Source: a virus
Lineage: Duplodnaviria > Heunggongvirae > Uroviricota > Caudoviricetes
Length of the DNA: 12,776 nucleotides
IMG/VR virus record: IMGVR_UViG_2690316243_000002
Direction: 5' to 3' (one strand)
Below, piece by piece: positions 3,110 through 10,994 of this stretch; position 1 is the first letter of the stretch; every line of letters begins with the position of its first letter. A program made the translations under genes and the position numbers. The notes under the pieces are model-generated. The model was not told where the DNA came from, made no database searches, and saw only the letters and a program-made list of their open reading frames with translations.

Positions 3110-3600
3110 GATTCGATAATTTTCAGAAACGGGTTAGTGGCTTTCTTCTGCCCCGCCAGGCCAATCAGACGCTGGCGGCTGCTGGGGTCGAGTCCGAGCA
3201 TTGCCCCCGTGCTGCTCATCTCGGACTCCTGTTCTTTTTTGGCGGTCAGCTCCGGATTTTTGACCCTGCCGCCCATTGCACCGGTGATGGTGTTGCCCTG
3301 TATGGCAATATTTTTCACGGCACGTCGCCAGAACTCATAGGCCACGCACCACCGCTCAAGTACCGCTAGGTCAGTCACGCACAGCAGGCCCTGACCGCAG
3401 AGTTCTTTGGTTGTCAGTTGCCACATGATCGTGGCGAGAGGGAGATCTTCTTCAGCGAACCACTCTGGTGGCTCAACACCTTTGATGGGCGTAAAAACAG
3501 GTTCATCTTTGTTCAGGGCTCGCTTGCCGGGGTTTCCGGCCAGCGCCTTGCGCGCCGTTGGCTTGGGGCGACGCCCGGAACGCCCCGCCGTTCCAGCCAT
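3106..3600 (-). CDS. terminase small subunit (P27-like)
   Basis: ORF 3106..3609; the preferred start is ATG at 3600 ([18 protein letters not shown]...) with AGGAG 8 nt upstream. Basic N-terminus, position immediately upstream of TerL and downstream of the HNH gene. Confidence 0.85.
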
Positions 3601-3650
3601 ATGCGGCACTCCTGGTTAAATTTCATTTTTCGCGGGTATAAAAAAACGAT

Positions 3651-3699
3651 GGGGCGGGCAGTCCGGAAGACGTCAGGTCACAGGGATTTGCCCCGCCCC
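3651..3699. other. GC-rich inverted repeat, candidate cos / packaging-site region
   Basis: ggggcggg (3651-3658) and cccgcccc (3692-3699) flank a 33-bp spacer in the HNH-terS intergenic region; an A-run at 3640-3647 gives a T-run on the minus strand. HK97-like cos phages place cos between HNH and terS. Confidence 0.3.
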
Positions 3700-3721
3700 T
3701 CCCTACAAGTGAGAATAATTA

Positions 3722-4072
3722 TCACCGGATTCGTTCGCGCGCTGTTTTCGCTTTATGGCAGGGCCAGCACAGACTCTGCAGGTTGCTGTCTGCGTCTGTT
3801 CCGCCATGCGCTTTCGGGATGATGTGGTCGACGGTTTTCGCCTCGCTCACCACACCGACACGCAGACACAACTGACACAGACCTTTATCGCGCTTCAGAA
3901 TACGGGCACGAATCACCGTCCATTTTGAGCCATAGCCACGCTGGTGGCGGCTCAGTCCGCGCTGGTGCTGCACCCAGCCTTCACCGCGATGTTTATCGCA
4001 GTAACCCGAACTGTCTGTGGTTGTACCTGCACATCCACGCTTACGGCAGGCACGTGGGATTAGTGATGGCAT
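3722..4072 (-). CDS. HNH endonuclease (terminase-associated)
   Basis: 116-aa ORF with Cys pairs and an HNH-like core (...DHIIPKAHGGTDADSNLQSLCWPCHKAKT...); located just upstream of the terminase genes as in HK97-like cos phages. Confidence 0.88.
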   Translation of the reverse strand: MPSLIPRACRKRGCAGTTTDSSGYCDKHRGEGWVQHQRGLSRHQRGYGSKWTVIRARILKRDKGLCQLCLRVGVVSEAKTVDHIIPKAHGGTDADSNLQSLCWPCHKAKTARERIR

Positions 4073-4114
4073 AAATACCTCATACCCTGCGAAATGTTTA
4101 CCACGATAAAAAGG

Positions 4115-4564
4115 CTACTTAATGCACTGAGTGCGGATATACTCCTGTGCCCCTTCCAGTTGCATCTGCATCGTCATCAGCCGCTCTCTGAGGGTGAAAT
4201 AATCCCGTTCAGCGGTGTCTGCCAGTCGGGGGCTGGTTGCATTATCCACGCCGGAGGCGGTGGTGGCTTCACGCACTGACTGACAGACTGCTTTGATGTG
4301 CAACCGACGACGACCAGCGGCAACATCAGCGCGCAGAGTTTCATTTTCAGCTTTCGCATCAGCTAACTCCTTCGTGTATTTAGCATCGAGTGCATNCTGC
4401 TGCATGTCAGTAATGGTTGCGTTCGCCAGCTTCAGTTCTCTTGCGTTTTTGTCGCGCTGCTCTTTGTAGGTAATGGCGTTATCACGGTAATGATTAACAG
4501 CCCATGACAGGCGGACGATGATGCAGATAACCAGAGCGGAGATAATCGCGGTGACTCTGCTCAT
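4115..4564 (-). CDS. Rz: i-spanin Rz
   Basis: Near-colinear with lambda Rz as recalled ([17 protein letters not shown]..., [15 protein letters not shown]..., [28 protein letters not shown]...); the ATG at 4564 overlaps the R stop (ATGA). One N at 4396. Confidence 0.9.
4177..4359 (-). CDS. Rz1: o-spanin Rz1 lipoprotein, nested in the +1 frame of Rz
   Basis: 60-aa [27 protein letters not shown]... with a lipobox (VVGC) and a proline run (PPPPP); fully embedded within Rz as in lambda. Confidence 0.85.
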   Translation of the reverse strand: MRKLKMKLCALMLPLVVVGCTSKQSVSQCVKPPPPPAWIMQPAPDWQTPLNGIISPSESG

Positions 4565-5058: not shown

Positions 5059-5269
5059 TATTCACCTCTCGCAGCCTTACNNNNNNNNNNNNNNNNNNNN
5101 NNNNNNNNGTCAGATAAGTCAGAAGCCCCAGAAGCAGACTTCCCAGCACACCAATCGCAGCCCACTGTGATGGACTGACCTGATCCAACCACTGCAAAAA
5201 CCAGTAGCCGGCACTGCCGGCGGAGGTGCCGTAGGCAATGCCCGTTGAAATTTTGTCCATGGATTTCAT
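5058..5269 (-). CDS. S: pinholin S (S21-type), interrupted by an assembly gap
   Basis: N-terminus [45 protein letters not shown]... with the dual-start motif (M-K-S-M) and GGAGGTGAGG upstream. The C-terminal ...KAARGE plus TAA (5058-5060) is in a different phase because of the 28-N run, so the true length is unknown. Confidence 0.8.
5081..5108. other. assembly gap (28 N)
   Basis: Run of n characters in the sequence; it breaks the holin reading frame. Confidence 0.99.
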
Positions 5270-5624: not shown

Positions 5625-6063
5625 CTACGGTCCTCCTCCCCGGAGGGGGGCATTTCATTATTTTTCTAATCGTTACTGGTGAGAAGGCGGAAGAAAAAGC
5701 CAGTTCTTCGCCCCTAAATAACAGCATGATTCCAGTCCATGCAAAATCTGATTTCCAGCTCACACATACCGAGCACTGTACAAAAAACCGCCAGCCAAGG
5801 CAGTTAAGAGTGTGTTCCCGGGGTTTGCTTAGAATATTTTGTAAGTTGTCCGAAGAGATATTTACAACACCAGAATGATGAATCATCAGTCCCCTGCCAG
5901 AGGTTCACTACGTAACCTGACCGACAATGCACCATTCTGGTGCTGAAAAAAGAGCACTGGAACTGCAACAAAACAACATCACAGAACAGGAGATGGTAAG
6001 GAGTCAGACATTCCCACACAATATTGTGTCAGTGCAAATAACAACCTTCGTCTCAAATCTCGC

Positions 6064-6138
<75 letters not shown>

Positions 6139-6141
6139 ATA

Positions 6142-6217
<76 letters not shown>

Positions 6218-6219
6218 GC

Positions 6220-6296
6220 TGGCCCACCACCGAGGACTCGAACCTCGCACCGTCAACTTAGAAGGTTGATGCTCTATCCGGATGAGCTAGTGGTGG
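6220..6296 (-). tRNA. tRNA-Arg (anticodon UCU)
   Basis: Reverse complement reads CCACCACTAGCTCATCCGGATAGAGCATCAACCTTCTAAGTTGACGGTGCGAGGTTCGAGTCCTCGGTGGTGGGCCA: anticodon stem TCAAC/GTTGA, loop CTTCTAA, T-loop TTCGAGT; unusual C1-G72 acceptor pair. Confidence 0.8.
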
Positions 6297-6297
6297 T

Positions 6298-6374
6298 TGG
6301 TGGCCCTTGCTGGACTTGAACCAGCGACCTGGCGATTATGAGTCGCTCGCTCTGACCAACTGAGCTAAAGGGCC
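6298..6374 (-). tRNA. tRNA-Ile2 (anticodon CAU, probable lysidine tRNA; Met not excluded)
   Basis: Reverse complement reads GGCCCTTTAGCTCAGTTGGTCAGAGCGAGCGACTCATAATCGCCAGGTCGCTGGTTCAAGTCCAGCAAGGGCCACCA: loop CTCATAA; the acceptor stem (C4, C5) and T-arm resemble host ileX rather than elongator tRNA-Met. Confidence 0.75.
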
Positions 6375-6563: not shown

Positions 6564-7118
6564 TCAAAAAGCAATAACTTTTTTCTCTATACCAAAAGCC
6601 ATAACCATTGGTTTGTACAAAATAAATTCTGCCACCTTTAGCCAATGCTCAATGCGTCTTTCACAGGTTCTTAAACTCCATTTCGGGTGTGCATCATTCA
6701 GCAGTTCAGCCATTTTGCGTTTGGTCATCCCCCGCCCCTCATACCGTTGCCGAAGGACGCTAATCAATCCTGGATGCTCTGCCAGCACCTCACTTATGAC
6801 CCGATCAATACATAACGCCTCTGCATCAGTACAATGCGCCAGCCAGCTCTTTTGCTTACCGTTAATCATATCCCGCAAAAAAGCCTCAAGTTCAGACTTG
6901 TTCAGACCTGCTTTTTTCATCCTCCGGAGCGCCTCGTTAATTGCCGTTTTTGTCAGCTTTTTAGAGGTCAACATCAGGTTAAACATATTCCCCGTCTTAC
7001 CGCCACCAATATACGACCAGCGCCCCCACATACGTAGTTTTCCCTGAATCCAGACACTTTCCAGCGTGGTGAGACGAAGGTGTTCTCCGCTTTTTCCTGT
7101 ATTCGTTGGGTAAATCAT
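6564..7118 (-). CDS. putative late-gene antiterminator, Q-like (second, longer type)
   Basis: ORF 6564..7238; the preferred start is ATG at 7118 (MIYPTNTGKSGEHLRL...) with AGGAGG 7 nt upstream, overlapping the stop of the upstream ORF (ATGA). It shares a W-G-x-W motif (LRMWGRWS) with the QuuD-like protein (ERWGAWA) and sits directly upstream of a terminator, the tRNA array and the lysis genes. Family assignment is uncertain. Confidence 0.5.
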   Translation of the reverse strand: MIYPTNTGKSGEHLRLTTLESVWIQGKLRMWGRWSYIGGGKTGNMFNLMLTSKKLTKTAINEALRRMKKAGLNKSELEAFLRDMINGKQKSWLAHCTDAEALCIDRVISEVLAEHPGLISVLRQRYEGRGMTKRKMAELLNDAHPKWSLRTCERRIEHWLKVAEFILYKPMVMAFGIEKKVIAF

Positions 7119-7372
7119 AAATATCCCTCCTTTCTCCAGATTTCTTGTGTGCGAAAAACACCTTCTGCATGCATCAGGCGTAATTCTTCTTTGGTGTAAT
7201 CGCTGGTTTTTACCCGCCCGTCGATTAAATCGTGGCACGAGCTACAGGCAATCGCTGCCTGCATATCGTGTGGCTTTATCGCTGTTCCGCACGTTCCCGC
7301 CAGTCGGTAATGCGCCAGCACAGACGTTTCCGGATCGTGATTGCAGTAGCCAGGAATTCTGACGGTGCACAT
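7115..7372 (-). CDS. DUF1364 / YbcO-like Cys-rich protein, probably N-terminally truncated
   Basis: 85-aa ORF MCTVRIPGYCNHDPETSVLAHYRLAG...ACSSCHDLIDGRVK...; DUF1364-like motifs as recalled. An in-frame TGA lies at ~7402 with no upstream start, and the IS fragment abuts the 5' side. Confidence 0.55.
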   Translation of the reverse strand: MCTVRIPGYCNHDPETSVLAHYRLAGTCGTAIKPHDMQAAIACSSCHDLIDGRVKTSDYTKEELRLMHAEGVFRTQEIWRKEGYL

Positions 7373-7392
7373 CTGCCCCCGNTGAAAATCAA

Positions 7393-7623
7393 CTTTCGAT
7401 CAGTGAAGGCGCTTCCCGATTATCTCTTCCTGAAGGCACTTTAGGACAATGGGTTACCGCCGCCAGAAAAGGGCTCGGTACTCCTGGTTCCCGCACGGTG
7501 GCTGAACTGGAATCTGAAATTCTGCAACTGCGTAAGGCGTTAAATGAAGCTCGCCTTGAGCGAGATATATTAAAAAAAGCAACAGCGTATTTTGCACAGG
7601 AGTCGCTGAAAAATACGCGTTAA
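7393..7623 (+). pseudogene. IS3-family transposase OrfA, C-terminal fragment
   Basis: The frame is open from the truncation point to TAA at 7621-7623 and has no N-terminal start; it contains a helix-turn-helix remnant and a leucine-zipper-like segment. Confidence 0.6.
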
Positions 7624-7658
7624 TCGAACAATGGCGACAACAATTTCCCATTGAAGCG

Positions 7659-8477
7659 ATGTGTCAGGTATTTGGTGTATCCAGGAGCGGTTATTACAAC
7701 TGGGTACAGCATGAACCCTCAGACAGAAAACAAAGTGATGAGCGGCTAAAACTGGAGATTAAGGTGGCACATATCCGCACTCGCGAAACATATGGAACCC
7801 GGCGGCTCCAGACGGAGCTGGCAGAGAATGGCATCATCGTTGGTCGTGACCGACTGGCACGTCTTCGTAAGGAGCTAAGGCTACGCTGTAAGCAGAAACG
7901 CAAGTTCAGAGCGACTACGAACTCGAACCACAATCTGCCAGTTGCGCCAAATCTGCTGAACCAGACGTTCGCTCCTACAGCACCAAATCAGGTCTGGGTG
8001 GCGGACCTGACGTATGTTGCCACACAGGAGGGATGGTTGTACCTCGCTGGCATCAAAGATGTTTATACGTGCGAAATTGTCGGCTACGCCATGGGAGAGC
8101 GCATGACAAAAGAGCTGACAGGTAAAGCCCTGTTTATGGCGCTCAGGAGCCAGCGCCCACCTGCCGGGCTAATCCACCACTCTGATCGAGGTTCACAGTA
8201 CTGCGCATACGATTACCGGGTCATACAGGAGCAGTCTGGTCTGAAAACATCAATGTCGCGTAAAGGTAACTGTTACGACAACGCTCCGATGGAAAGCTTC
8301 TGGGGAACGCTGAAAAATGAGAGCCTGAGCCACTATCGTTTTAATAACCGGGATGAAGCCATCTCAGTAATACGGGAATACATTGAGATTTTCTACAATC
8401 GTCAGCGTCGTCACTCTCGTCTGGGGAATATCTCCCCGGCAGCCTTCAGGGAAAAATATCATCAGATGGCTGCTTAA
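7659..8477 (+). CDS. IS3-family transposase OrfB (DDE catalytic domain)
   Basis: 272-aa ORF with VWVADLTYV, HHSDRGSQY and YDNAPMESFW motifs (D, D, E); naturally expressed as an OrfAB fusion by -1 frameshifting at the A-run near 7572-7579. Confidence 0.9.
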   Translation: MCQVFGVSRSGYYNWVQHEPSDRKQSDERLKLEIKVAHIRTRETYGTRRLQTELAENGIIVGRDRLARLRKELRLRCKQKRKFRATTNSNHNLPVAPNLLNQTFAPTAPNQVWVADLTYVATQEGWLYLAGIKDVYTCEIVGYAMGERMTKELTGKALFMALRSQRPPAGLIHHSDRGSQYCAYDYRVIQEQSGLKTSMSRKGNCYDNAPMESFWGTLKNESLSHYRFNNRDEAISVIREYIEIFYNRQRRHSRLGNISPAAFREKYHQMAA

Positions 8478-8702
8478 AAAAAGAACAAATGGTAGTGTCC
8501 GCTATTGCCAGTACACCTCACACTCTATCCAACAAACCACCCACAGTTAATCGGAATAAAAGCAGAGTGCTTATGAATGATCGCACGCCCGAAGGTTAGT
8601 ATTTCTGCACAGCAATTTTGCAAAAAAAGGCGATCATTCATAACTTAAACGTCTTTCAGTCACTCCGGGATTTCCCATCATCGCAGACTGAAAGACTCTG
8701 AC

Positions 8703-8777
<75 letters not shown>

Positions 8778-8780
8778 ATA

Positions 8781-8856
<76 letters not shown>

Positions 8857-8858
8857 GC

Positions 8859-8935
8859 TGGCCCACCACCGAGGACTCGAACCTCGCACCGTCAACTTAG
8901 AAGGTTGATGCTCTATCCGGATGAGCTAGTGGTGG
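8859..8935 (-). tRNA. tRNA-Arg (anticodon UCU), copy 2
   Basis: Identical to 6220..6296 (offset 2639). Confidence 0.8.
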
Positions 8936-8936
8936 T

Positions 8937-9013
8937 TGGTGGCCCTTGCTGGACTTGAACCAGCGACCTGGCGATTATGAGTCGCTCGCTCTGACCAACT
9001 GAGCTAAAGGGCC
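8937..9013 (-). tRNA. tRNA-Ile2 (anticodon CAU), copy 2
   Basis: Identical to 6298..6374 (offset 2639). Confidence 0.75.
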
Positions 9014-9051: not shown

Positions 9052-9101
9052 ACTCATCTGACCACCAGCACGTTTAACGTCCTGTGCCGTTTTTCAGGTA
9101 T

Positions 9102-9124
9102 AAAAAAACCCGCTCATCGGCGGG
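9102..9124 (-). terminator. intrinsic terminator downstream of the ORF6N-domain gene
   Basis: Minus strand CCCGC-CGATGA-GCGGG followed by TTTTTTTATACC (plus cccgc 9109-9113, gcggg 9120-9124, A-run 9102-9108). It shares the T-run and stem arms with the 6461..6484 terminator; only the loop differs. Confidence 0.6.
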
Positions 9125-9202
9125 TTTAAGCTGTGTGGCGTAGTAACCACTCTTAACAGGATATTCAACTTTTTACGATCGTAAAGTTTTCGGAAAAAAT
9201 TT

Positions 9203-9766
9203 TTAAAACCGCATCAACCGCTCCACCAGTTGCTCTTTACGGGCAACGATCCACCCGTGTTGCTCCAGATAAAATTTAAACCGTTCCAGAGTACATACCA
9301 TCGCATCGGCGGGTACCTTTTCCGTGAACTCAACCTGACCGTGTTTATCGAAGTGGCTCAGTAATGCGCATCCATCATTTTCGATAGATGTGTTTTGTGC
9401 CGCTGGTGGCTGTTTCTGGTTGAAATAACAGTCTTCCAGTTTTTCGAACACTTCCCACGCCTGATCGGTTTCGAGCATTTTGGCGTGACGGGCTGCGCCA
9501 CGTTCTGTCCAGAGGATGAGGGAGCGAACGTTACGGGCAATTTTCACAGAAACTCTTAAAGAGTTTTCGTTCTTCAACTCTCGTAACGCATCACCTTCTA
9601 TCAGGAAAAAATGTTTACCTTCTATAAACCGTTCTTTGTTTCGATTGAAATTGTTTGTCAAACGCTGGCGCTCTGTTCCGTACAAATCAGCCAGCAGCTC
9701 TGTTGTCATGACAGGAAGATGGTTATGCGTAAGTGACGGGAGTTTTTCAATAGACGTGCGATTCAT
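9203..9766 (-). CDS. ORF6N-domain protein (KilA-N/ORF6N-type DNA-binding domain; antirepressor-like), function unknown
   Basis: ORF 9203..9964; the preferred start is ATG at 9766 (MNRTSIEKL...) with AAGGA 7 nt upstream (the alternative ATG at 9772 has too short a spacing). The N-terminal block LPVMTTELLADLYGTERQRLTNNFNRNKERFIEGKHFFLIEGDALRELK matches the ORF6N pattern as recalled; the C-terminal ~70 aa are unassigned. Confidence 0.6.
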   Translation of the reverse strand: MNRTSIEKLPSLTHNHLPVMTTELLADLYGTERQRLTNNFNRNKERFIEGKHFFLIEGDALRELKNENSLRVSVKIARNVRSLILWTERGAARHAKMLETDQAWEVFEKLEDCYFNQKQPPAAQNTSIENDGCALLSHFDKHGQVEFTEKVPADAMVCTLERFKFYLEQHGWIVARKEQLVERLMRF

Positions 9767-9972
9767 AGACATGTCCTTTCGAATATTTTGATTTACCCCT
9801 TTTGAGAGGGTGACCGGGCGCTCAAAACCGTCGAAAGTCGGCGGGCGTATTTCCATTGCTGGTATTGTATTAGCCGCACACCCGGTCATAAACCAAGAAT
9901 TCTGGACACAAAAAAACCACATGGCTATCGGGTGTGGATACCGCTTTCGAGGTGTTTTGAGCACCGCGGGGA

Positions 9973-10001
9973 AATGTAAACTGCAAACCTGAAACTGTCA
10001 A
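9973..10001 (-). promoter_or_regulatory. candidate sigma70 promoter for the ORF6N-domain gene
   Basis: Minus strand: TTGACA (10001..9996), 17-nt spacer, TACATT (9978..9973), about 200 nt upstream of the ATG. Confidence 0.4.
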
Positions 10002-10125
10002 CACCGTCAGGTTCCAATCATCGGGTGGTGAGACGCACAGGGTTGGAACTACCGGGAAACCGACCGGCGAGCTTTTCAGCTCCCCCATGCGCCCCACCAT
10101 AATTCAGATGTGCGCGTGCATACGA

Positions 10126-10150
10126 CAATAAAAAACACGCTCGCGGCGTG
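10126..10150 (-). terminator. candidate tR' (terminator of the short late leader transcript)
   Basis: Minus strand ACACGC-CGCGA-GCGTGT followed by TTTTTTATTG, about 70 nt downstream of the candidate pR'. Confidence 0.55.
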
Positions 10151-10211
10151 TGTCTGTCGCGGTCTCTATCCGGGGTTCCAATCCCGACGCCAGATTTTGC
10201 TGGCGCGTGAG

Positions 10212-10241
10212 GAATATAGCCCCGGACAATGTGTCTGGTCA
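10212..10241 (-). promoter_or_regulatory. candidate late promoter pR' (Q-utilisation region)
   Basis: Minus strand: TTGACC (10241..10236), 18-nt spacer, TATATT (10217..10212), starting 6 nt after the Q stop codon. Confidence 0.5.
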
Positions 10242-10246
10242 AGCAC

Positions 10247-10633
10247 CTACATAATTCGCTCTACGTATCTGTCCATCTCCAGCCGGATATCAAGCATCAT
10301 CAACATGCCATCAATAACCCCTTCCGCTTTCTGCAGGCGCTTGCCAATACAGGTATCCGAACACCCATGTTTCCGTGCCAGACTCATAAAAGTCATTCCA
10401 CCTACGTAATAATCCACCAGCAAATCGTGCAAATCCTGATTTTTCTTGTTCAACCGGGCCATACAGCCACAAATTATCATTGCATCATCATCAGAACACT
10501 GAGGGCGTGATTTCACTTTCGACGGAATTAACCCTTTAAAACCAGCAGCGATCGACGCCCAGGATACATCTTCATGAGTGTTTGCAGCCCAAGCCCCCCA
10601 CCGTTCCATAACCTGCTGAATATCACGCGCCAT
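10247..10633 (-). CDS. late-gene antiterminator Q (QuuD / phage-82-like family)
   Basis: ORF 10247..10654; the preferred start is ATG at 10633 ([34 protein letters not shown]...) with AGGTGA upstream. Resembles E. coli DLP12 QuuD as recalled, with the same RusA-then-Q synteny. Confidence 0.75.
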
Positions 10634-10994
10634 CGTTATCACCTGTGATTTCATAAATCTTCACGCCCAGTCGCCCACCAGGAACGAGCTGACCGCGCAC
10701 AATATTGATTTCATCAAACTGCTCGTCGTCTATGAGTAGTCCGGCATGCGTCAGCGCATCCAGTGGTGCTTTCAGGATATTGTCCAGGTCACGACGGCGC
10801 TTATCCGGTGGCTCTGCAATAATCTTTATCGCCAGCCTTCCGGACAGGTTTAATTTCAGCCGCTGCTGGCGAACAATTAGCGTCACATCACGGCGATAAC
10901 GCTCACCAACTTTTGATACAAAATATGTGCTGCCACGACGTCGCCAGTAAGTATTCACCGTCGGCGGATAAGGTAAAATAAACTCATGGCGCAT
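10623..10994 (-). CDS. rusA: Holliday junction resolvase RusA
   Basis: 123-aa ORF with RusA hallmarks ([14 protein letters not shown]..., [32 protein letters not shown]..., [11 protein letters not shown]). Confidence 0.9.

Follow-up and report, generated by a model that had tools for sequence, protein, structure and literature searches.

The window considered here is a stretch of 12,776 nucleotides from a phage of the class Caudoviricetes (IMG/VR record IMGVR_UViG_2690316243_000002), in which all the phage genes lie on the minus strand. The subject is a gene for a protein with an ORF6N domain, located between a gene for the antiterminator Q and an array of tRNAs, together with the interval of about 480 nt that separates Q from the ATG of the gene. 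It is likely that the gene encodes an antirepressor or induction regulator of the AnrP type, held off in the lysogen by two tandem antisense-RNA modules of the c4/CI type. The elements that frame the locus are:

10654..10247, minus strand: gene for antiterminator Q, 135 amino acids (aa) (Pfam Phage_antitermQ, E=2.7e-52), directly upstream of the RNA region
9766..9203, minus strand: gene for the ORF6N-domain, AnrP-like protein, 187 aa (assigned by Pfam, PHROG and homology to AnrP)
9127..9106, minus strand: intrinsic terminator after the ORF6N gene, AAACCCGCCGATGAGCGGGTTT followed by a run of T
9013..8703, minus strand: tRNA array Met(CAT)-Arg(TCT)-Thr(TGT)-Gly(TCC), downstream neighbour of the ORF6N gene

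The ORF6N gene and its product

A first-pass annotation of this DNA had described a 187-aa open reading frame (ORF) with an ORF6N domain and an unassigned C-terminal part of ~70 aa, provided with its own terminator and placed between Q and the tRNAs; all these features were found. The longest form of the ORF spans 9964..9203 and the conserved start is the ATG at 9766, which has AAGGA 7 nt upstream; an alternative ATG at 9772 reads ATA in Escherichia coli EC12. The Pfam family ORF6N (PF10543) is matched by residues 13-97 with E=8.8e-21 and 74.4 bits, against a cut-off of 27.8, and residues ~118-187 have no match in Pfam or NCBIfam.

Nearly the whole protein aligns with PHROG 2379, 'anti-repressor' (residues 2-187 on profile positions 3-187 of 187, E=4.4e-85). 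STM2616 (AnrP) of Salmonella Gifsy-1, likewise of 187 aa and likewise placed after Q and before a tRNA, is 49% identical to it over 184 aa (E=6e-58); expression of anrP raises the RNA of the antQ operon and induces Gifsy-1 (Hershko-Shalev et al. 2016, PMC4825925). Among the functions first proposed for the gene, namely antirepressor, superinfection exclusion or host regulation, the antirepressor role is thus the best supported, by the homology to AnrP and by the PHROG match. Relatives at E<1e-5 number more than 4,600; a Shigella sonnei cluster named 'ORF6N domain-containing protein', with 106 member sequences, shares 99% identity with the window protein, and 11 IMG/VR contigs carry a 100% identical copy.

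In the AlphaFold model the N-domain is confident, the linker (residues 112-130) is disordered and the small C-domain has low confidence. The C-domain is exchangeable: ORF26 of P13374, the Stx2a phage of E. coli O104:H4, is 67% identical over residues 1-124 and shows no identity beyond. Membership of a defence system was considered and rejected, since PADLOC gave only a weak match to PDC-S05 (1.4e-7), confined to the ORF6N domain, and NCBIfam gave none.

RNA elements of the leader

The interval between Q and the ATG is more than spacer: it contains four Rfam matches above their gathering scores (c4-a1b1, isrK, C4 and sRNA-Xcc1), which fall into two modules. In the following, the target sites upstream of each antisense RNA are called a1 and b1, those downstream a2 and b2, and their complements in the antisense RNA a' and b'. 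Module 1 comprises:

10242..10213, minus strand: isrK promoter-like site (PisrK), TTGACC-18-TATATT
10219..10130, minus strand: target-bearing small RNA (sRNA) of module 1 (c4-a1b1 10219..10167, isrK 10206..10130)
10151..10135, minus strand: intrinsic terminator of IsrK
10104..10021, minus strand: antisense RNA of the C4 family, counterpart of Salmonella STnc1160 (Rfam C4, 71 bits, gathering score 45)
10100..9870, minus strand: orf45-like small ORF, 76 aa, beginning in the 5' strand of C4 and ending inside the Xcc1 RNA
10017..10011, minus strand: downstream target b2, UUGGAAC

The isrK match scores 77.5 bits (gathering score 50) and that of c4-a1b1 50.1 bits (gathering score 46.7); both, like the C4 element, match the isrK locus of Gifsy-1 almost base for base. 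The terminator earlier named tR' is actually that of IsrK. Site b1, UUGGAAC, lies in the loop of the second hairpin of the target-bearing sRNA, the b' site of the C4 RNA is GUUCCAA, and b2 in the window is at no recognisable ribosome-binding site. In Gifsy-1 the isrK promoter/C4 module transcribes anrP, and IsrK supplied in trans activates anrP translation 140-fold (PMC4825925).

The AUGs of the orf45-like ORF are at transcript positions 107 and 119-121 from the isrK +1 and correspond to the codons mutated in orf45 of Gifsy-1. The ORF ends 100 nt short of the ORF6N ATG at 9766, so that no stop/start coupling occurs. Its stop is a TAA within the conserved GGCUAAUAC of the Xcc1 RNA, the frame having been lengthened by an inserted block, and ribosomes on it would unwind the P2 region (see below), the terminator of the second short RNA and the 5' strand of the Xcc1 RNA. 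The 76-aa ORF has no match in PHROG; it was not retained as a gene of its own and is treated as an accidental extension of orf45.

The leader takes a long form both in the window and in E. coli EC12, with ~200 extra nt directly after b2 of module 1. Module 2 extends from this block to the ORF6N Shine-Dalgarno sequence:

10001..9973, minus strand: promoter P2, TTGACA-17-TACATT
9966..9911, minus strand: predicted target-bearing short RNA of module 2
9961..9955, minus strand: a1, CUCAAAA, displayed by the hairpin GGUG/CACC
9950..9944, minus strand: b1, UCGAAAG
9936..9911, minus strand: weak terminator, CCACA..UGUGG-U7
9887..9804, minus strand: antisense RNA of the sRNA-Xcc1 family, 84 nt (Rfam, 77.4 bits, gathering score 53)
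9837..9831, minus strand: b', CUUUCGA, in the loop of the second hairpin of the Xcc1 RNA
9827..9821, minus strand: a', UUUUGAG, in the multiloop junction of the Xcc1 RNA
9806..9800, minus strand: a2, CUCAAAA, in the loop of a small hairpin CCC/GGG
9782..9776, minus strand: b2, UCGAAAG, overlapping the ORF6N Shine-Dalgarno AAGGA (9778..9774)

P2 is the promoter that the first-pass annotation had attributed to the gene, and it is present as described. It agrees with the consensus at 10/12 positions, which alone is not above chance (2.4 sites of this quality would be expected in the region, and 4 were counted). EC12 retains both hexamers between diverged flanks, and a promoter match of at least 9/12 stands at the equivalent place in 29 of the 52 distinct modules described below, mostly as TTGAC-. 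Control of P2 by LexA was rejected: a CTGT-N8-ACAG site with one mismatch overlaps the -35 (9995..10010), but it is absent in EC12 and its core is not AT-rich, and one-mismatch sites of this kind number 9 in the window against 4.3 expected.

The terminator stem of the short RNA shows compensatory changes in the alignment (CCACA/UGUGG, CCGCG/CGCGG, CCAAC/GUUGG), and the stretch carrying a1 and b1 matches no Rfam family at E<=1. The Xcc1 loop CUUUCGA is complementary to UCGAAAG both just past P2 and over the ORF6N Shine-Dalgarno. The C4 model gives no match to 9887..9804 at E<=1 and Rfam keeps sRNA-Xcc1 outside clan CL00128; the Xcc1 RNA is like C4 in architecture, a likeness that stops short of proven homology.

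Survey of related loci and co-variation of the pairing sites

Starting from the relatives of the protein, 100 loci were fetched and 40 non-redundant ones were scanned with Rfam. In 36 of these 40, isrK and C4 lie directly upstream of the ORF6N gene; Xcc1 is found beside the ATG in 10/40, eight times behind C4, once as two Xcc1 in tandem and once alone. The tandem modules (L094, on the same contig as L169; 2163-2247 and 2369-2453) differ in their a and b specificities; neither isrK nor C4 was found there, and the first module has no clear b2. At two other loci (L087 and L088, ~2250-2500) C4 ends ~250 nt before the ORF6N ATG with no Rfam match between them, and this gap may hold a module of a third type, as yet unrecognised; upstream, the opposite strand carries a ryfA RNA. 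The ORF6N relatives of Xenorhabdus (L005; L006 has an identical upstream region) and Morganella (L023) have no Rfam match upstream. Therefore, the RNA lock is not universal across the ORF6N protein family, of which the Firmicutes loci were outside the scan.

Q genes of three families are found 274-509 nt upstream of the ORF6N gene in 27/53 non-redundant loci, all of them enterobacterial-type IMG/VR loci. The unit is mobile, following three Q families at a fixed distance and sitting elsewhere in Stx phages.

For module 1, the 17 distinct C4 modules compared represent five specificities; b1, b' and b2 change together in them, with agreement in 16/17 cognate against 51/272 non-cognate combinations. 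For module 2, a core-pattern scan of viral contigs added 76 loci, giving 52 distinct Xcc1 modules with 30 distinct b' loops. A perfect complement of b' of at least 6 nt is present in both of its own flanks in 21/30 cognate combinations and in 26/870 non-cognate ones; none of 2000 permutations reached the observed value (0/2000). When G·U pairs are allowed the figures are 24/30 and 138/870, and three modules (L107, L159 and L151) have a site where Watson-Crick pairing breaks down and only G·U preserves the match, which fits RNA-RNA pairing and not DNA repeats. The b1/b'/b2 triplets illustrate the change in step of the three sites: UCGAAAG/CUUUCGA/UCGAAAG in the window, UCAGUAG/CUACUGA/UCAGUAG in EC12 and CAGAAAG/CUUUCUG/CAGAAAG in L094. 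At least 25 b-specificities occur among the Xcc1 modules, and in one module a is changed as well, to CUCGAAA / UUUCGAG. In other modules, too, b2 extends into the AGG/GAG of the Shine-Dalgarno, and the distance from its 3' end to the ATG is mostly 7-10 nt. The analysis relies on this loop-level co-variation because global RNA duplex energies compared with shuffles were uninformative (z from -0.0 to -3.9), full-length duplexing ignoring intramolecular structure.

The 26 distinct proteins encoded downstream of Xcc1 modules carry ORF6N (8), KilA-N (6), Bro-N (5), P22_AR_N (3) and Phage_pRha (1) domains, and these are the N-domains classically associated with antirepressors. An Xcc1-type leader of the same kind precedes 'ant' genes in the Stx phages P13374, phi191, 2851, Nil2 and TL-2011c and in the Shigella phages Ss-VASD, 75/02 Stx and POCJ13. 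In P13374 (L180, HE664024.1), the Xcc1-type RNA region at 3548-3694 is annotated as a coding sequence of 49 aa, 'antB2 antirepressor', and the ORF6N-domain gene at 3705-4379 as 'antitermination'; both labels are probably mis-annotations.

Proposed regulation of the ORF6N gene

In module 1, transcription from PisrK would proceed through IsrK, with a1/b1 and the terminator, to the C4 RNA and then to b2, the arrangement characterised in Gifsy-1. In module 2, P2 would make a short RNA carrying a1 (CUCAAAA) and b1 (UCGAAAG); read-through of the weak terminator would give the 84-nt Xcc1-type RNA, presumably released by processing, and then the mRNA leader with a2 and b2. The free Xcc1 RNA would pair through a' and b' with a2 and b2 and block translation of ORF6N, since b2 overlaps the Shine-Dalgarno. 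The short a1/b1 RNA may serve as a decoy, titrating away the antisense RNA and so freeing translation, as IsrK does on anrP. Once made, the ORF6N protein would derepress the early/Q operon of the prophage, provided that the locus is still active in this rearranged genome.

In the lysogen, RNA of the locus is probably made and the protein held off. The earlier proposal that its own promoter lets the gene be expressed from the repressed prophage would then hold probably for the RNA and probably not for the protein, the leader predicting silencing. Nor does the description of the gene as 'self-contained' hold: P2 is predicted to yield, as its first products, a short sRNA and then an Xcc1-type antisense RNA with a loop complementary to the gene's own ribosome-binding site, and the gene also lies downstream of the isrK promoter/C4 module. 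In a data set from enterohaemorrhagic E. coli EDL933, an Rfam sRNA-Xcc1 locus is abundant and poorly covered by ribosomes, its location in a prophage being unconfirmed.

More generally, and with some reserve, we favour the view that sRNA-Xcc1, which many genome annotations label as a trans-acting sRNA linked to virulence, represents a second class of phage immunity antisense RNA, c4/CI-like and widespread, with reprogrammable 7-nt loops gating all the major antirepressor N-domain types; here it would be stacked behind C4, requiring two independent RNA keys for release, and the loops would be heteroimmunity determinants for the cross-induction of co-resident prophages. We also considered that PisrK might be the Q-dependent late promoter PR' and IsrK an analogue of lambda 6S RNA, an idea made attractive by the fact that PisrK directly follows three families of Q. 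Deletion of PisrK abolishes the spontaneous release of Gifsy-1 phage, in favour of this idea, whereas AnrP-driven phage production is reported to be independent of the isrK locus (PMC4825925), which speaks against it.

Several points weigh against an AnrP-type regulator under a double RNA lock. Extra STnc1160, which is C4-like, worsened the toxicity of IsrK instead of relieving it (PMC4825925), a misfit with a simple repressor role of the C4-type RNA. The orf45-type ORF is uncoupled from the ORF6N ATG, and the Gifsy-1 mechanism is therefore not transferable unchanged. In the minimum-free-energy fold computed for the entire P2 leader, a1/b1 are paired in cis with a'/b'; on this model, transcripts that read through might relieve themselves, and regulation could have a net sign other than in P1. 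The a-site is far less variable and its co-variation weaker (15/24 cognate against 107/552 non-cognate), and the Xcc1 sample, consisting of viral contigs retrieved with one core pattern, is biased towards phage contexts. Moreover, the prophage is rearranged at the IS3-family insertion sequence (IS) described below, its repressor is encoded outside the window, expression of this locus is a prediction from its sequence, and proteins of the AnrP type may act either by binding a repressor or as DNA-binding activators.

Layout of the window

Read along the minus strand, the window carries, in this order, a DnaB-like helicase, RusA, the 135-aa Q, the 480-nt interval, the ORF6N ORF, its terminator and the four tRNAs. 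These are followed by the IS3-family element, a truncated ybcO, a second Q-like gene (DUF1133) and a second copy of the tRNA array, and then by lysis, HNH, terminase and portal genes. No integron features were found in the window, and the locus is a leader in the late region of a lambdoid prophage.

The two copies of the four-tRNA array (6058-6357 and 8697-8996) are 99% identical over 300 nt, and each lies downstream of a different Q-type gene, the PF06530 Q at 10654..10247 and the DUF1133 gene at 7238..6564. The IS3-family element (~7384-8700, plus strand) is without its 5' end, its orfA frame beginning in mid-protein at ~7384 and orfB occupying 7659..8477; it adjoins the 5'-truncated ybcO (7372..7115, Pfam profile positions 11-91 of 92). 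It looks as though an IS brought the late regions of two prophages together at this junction, a common event in Shigella. N characters near ~4400, ~5080-5110, ~5390 and 7383, which could be masked or ambiguous bases, give X in the translations of the Rz-like, holin-like and neighbouring ORFs.

The isrK-C4 block is matched in ~880 of 5,426 complete E. coli genomes and is contiguous with the Q of the window in only 50. The end of Q (Q stop / PisrK -35, 10224-10247) is, judging from these comparisons, a sharp mosaic junction with a homology breakpoint.

Alternative explanations

The gene could be an autonomous moron, its protein being made from P2 in the repressed prophage for superinfection exclusion, defence or host regulation. 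This is rather unlikely. The gene does have its own promoter and terminator, it stands after Q at the usual site of morons, its C-terminal domain is variable and swapped among relatives, and the ORF6N domain gives a weak PADLOC match to the candidate system PDC-S05 (1.4e-7). However, that match covers the shared N-domain only, an antisense RNA encoded in the leader is complementary to the Shine-Dalgarno of the gene, with three-way co-variation of the sites, and RNA modules of the same kind stand before genes of the classic antirepressor domain families. The closest characterised homologue is a phage induction regulator that induces its own prophage, so that the 'moron' of the first-pass annotation, in the sense of cargo of benefit to the host, is improbable. 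It is unlikely, too, that the RNAs and the gene are a functionless relic in an IS-scrambled prophage. In favour of such a relic, the window carries a pair of Q genes and a pair of tRNA arrays, with a truncated ybcO and an IS3-family element lacking its 5' end at the joint, and the orf45-like frame is extended by fusion; against it, the ORF is intact and its product is conserved in the 11 contigs and in the 106-member cluster, all six target and antisense sites match perfectly, and EC12 has the same long form with a different, internally consistent specificity.

The remaining explanations concern the heptamers and the Xcc1-type RNA. That this RNA is a trans-acting sRNA on host (virulence) mRNAs, incidentally placed before ORF6N, would agree with published accounts in which sRNA-Xcc1 is integron-encoded, controlled by HrpG/HrpX and linked to virulence; this is quite unlikely here, since the loops vary from module to module and are matched by two cis flanking sites, whereas a conserved host target would constrain the loop. 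Cis and trans roles are not mutually exclusive. Very improbable is a role of the repeated heptamers as DNA sites for a protein instead of partners in RNA pairing. ORF6N/KilA-N domains do bind DNA, and b1 and b2 are formally direct repeats with b' as an inverted copy; yet b' always falls in the loop of an RNA hairpin supported by a covariance model, some cognate pairs are kept only via G·U, which is meaningless in duplex DNA, and the P1 c4 and Gifsy-1 IsrK systems provide a precedent, with compensatory mutations tested (PMC4825925, Table 1D-E).

Significance

The gene family, IsrK/C4 and the c4 principle are already known. Three points were not found in the searchable literature, which mostly excludes subscription journals, and may have been described before: a c4-like function of sRNA-Xcc1, acting in cis as an antisense RNA on antirepressor genes, the upstream a1/b1 partner RNA of Xcc1 and the tandem C4 + Xcc1 arrangement. 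Control of the antirepressor decides the switching-on of prophages, including the Stx phages of E. coli O104:H4 and O157 and the Shigella phages with an Xcc1-type leader. If sRNA-Xcc1 is indeed a cis-encoded antirepressor lock, current annotations such as that of P13374 would be corrected and the reports of a 'virulence sRNA' for this family reinterpreted. Its simple, mutable 7-nt code would lend itself to probing cross-talk and heteroimmunity of co-resident prophages, the tandem C4 + Xcc1 would be a natural two-input RNA gate, and the ORF6N gene should not be counted as lysogenic-conversion cargo.

Comparison with known systems

In the immI region of phages P1 and P7, a single transcript ahead of the antirepressor gene carries a1 and b1, the structured antisense c4 RNA with a' and b', and then a2 and b2; this c4/icd/ant system was reportedly studied by Citron and Schuster in 1990. 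The corresponding Rfam families are RF01695 and RF03163. Like immI, the window has a structured antisense RNA flanked by a1 b1 and a2 b2 ahead of an antirepressor gene, and in both of its modules the upstream and downstream target copies co-vary with the antisense RNA. Module 2 shares with immI the position of b2 at the ribosome-binding site and a specificity set by short loops. Conversely, the antirepressor of the window is of the ORF6N type and not AntA/AntB, and there are two tandem modules, the second RNA being undetected by the C4 model at E<=1.

The antQ-isrK-orf45-anrP-isrJ region of Gifsy-1 is similar in having Q, the isrK promoter and IsrK, the C4-like STnc1160, an AnrP-type protein of 187 aa and a tRNA, and in the overlap of the C4-like RNA by a small ORF with AUGs at +107 and +119. 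It differs from the window in lacking the extra ~200-nt block with P2, the a1/b1 RNA and the Xcc1 RNA between C4 and the gene. The small ORF has 76 aa in the window and 45 in Gifsy-1, where the 45th codon overlaps the anrP ATG as ATGA, whereas in the window the two are uncoupled. The Q of the window belongs to the PF06530 family and that of Gifsy-1 is phage-82-like; the b specificity is UUGGAAC in the window and UUGGCGU in Gifsy-1. No isrJ was matched in the window by the Rfam scan, so that it is missing from the 3' end of the operon, unlike in Gifsy-1 and the Gifsy-1-type loci L071, L090 and L093.

The satellite phage P4 (seqA, CI RNA, seqC) likewise has a processed, structured RNA with complementary sites on both sides in one transcript, a parallel that the Gifsy-1 authors had already noted for IsrK (PMC4825925). 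In P4 the outcome is premature termination of transcription of the replication genes, whereas in the window the site overlaps the Shine-Dalgarno of the antirepressor gene.

With the described sRNA-Xcc1 (RF02221) the window RNA shares the same fold, in which a long stem closes the structure around two hairpins and the 3' tail is rich in ACC. In Xanthomonas campestris this RNA was presented as an integron-cassette, trans-acting and virulence-regulated sRNA (Chen et al. 2011), whereas in the window and in the 52 viral-contig modules it belongs to leaders of antirepressor-type genes with target sites in cis. A paper on APSE phages noted an ORF6N gene beside sRNA-Xcc1, proposing no mechanism, and a Xylella annotation table lists C4, isrK and sRNA-Xcc1 side by side.

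Finally, the morons that lambdoid phages carry downstream of Q, such as stx, resemble the window gene in their post-Q position near phage tRNAs and in having their own promoter and terminator. In contrast to them, the window gene has a predicted function in phage regulation and not in host benefit, and its protein output is predicted to be off in the lysogen.

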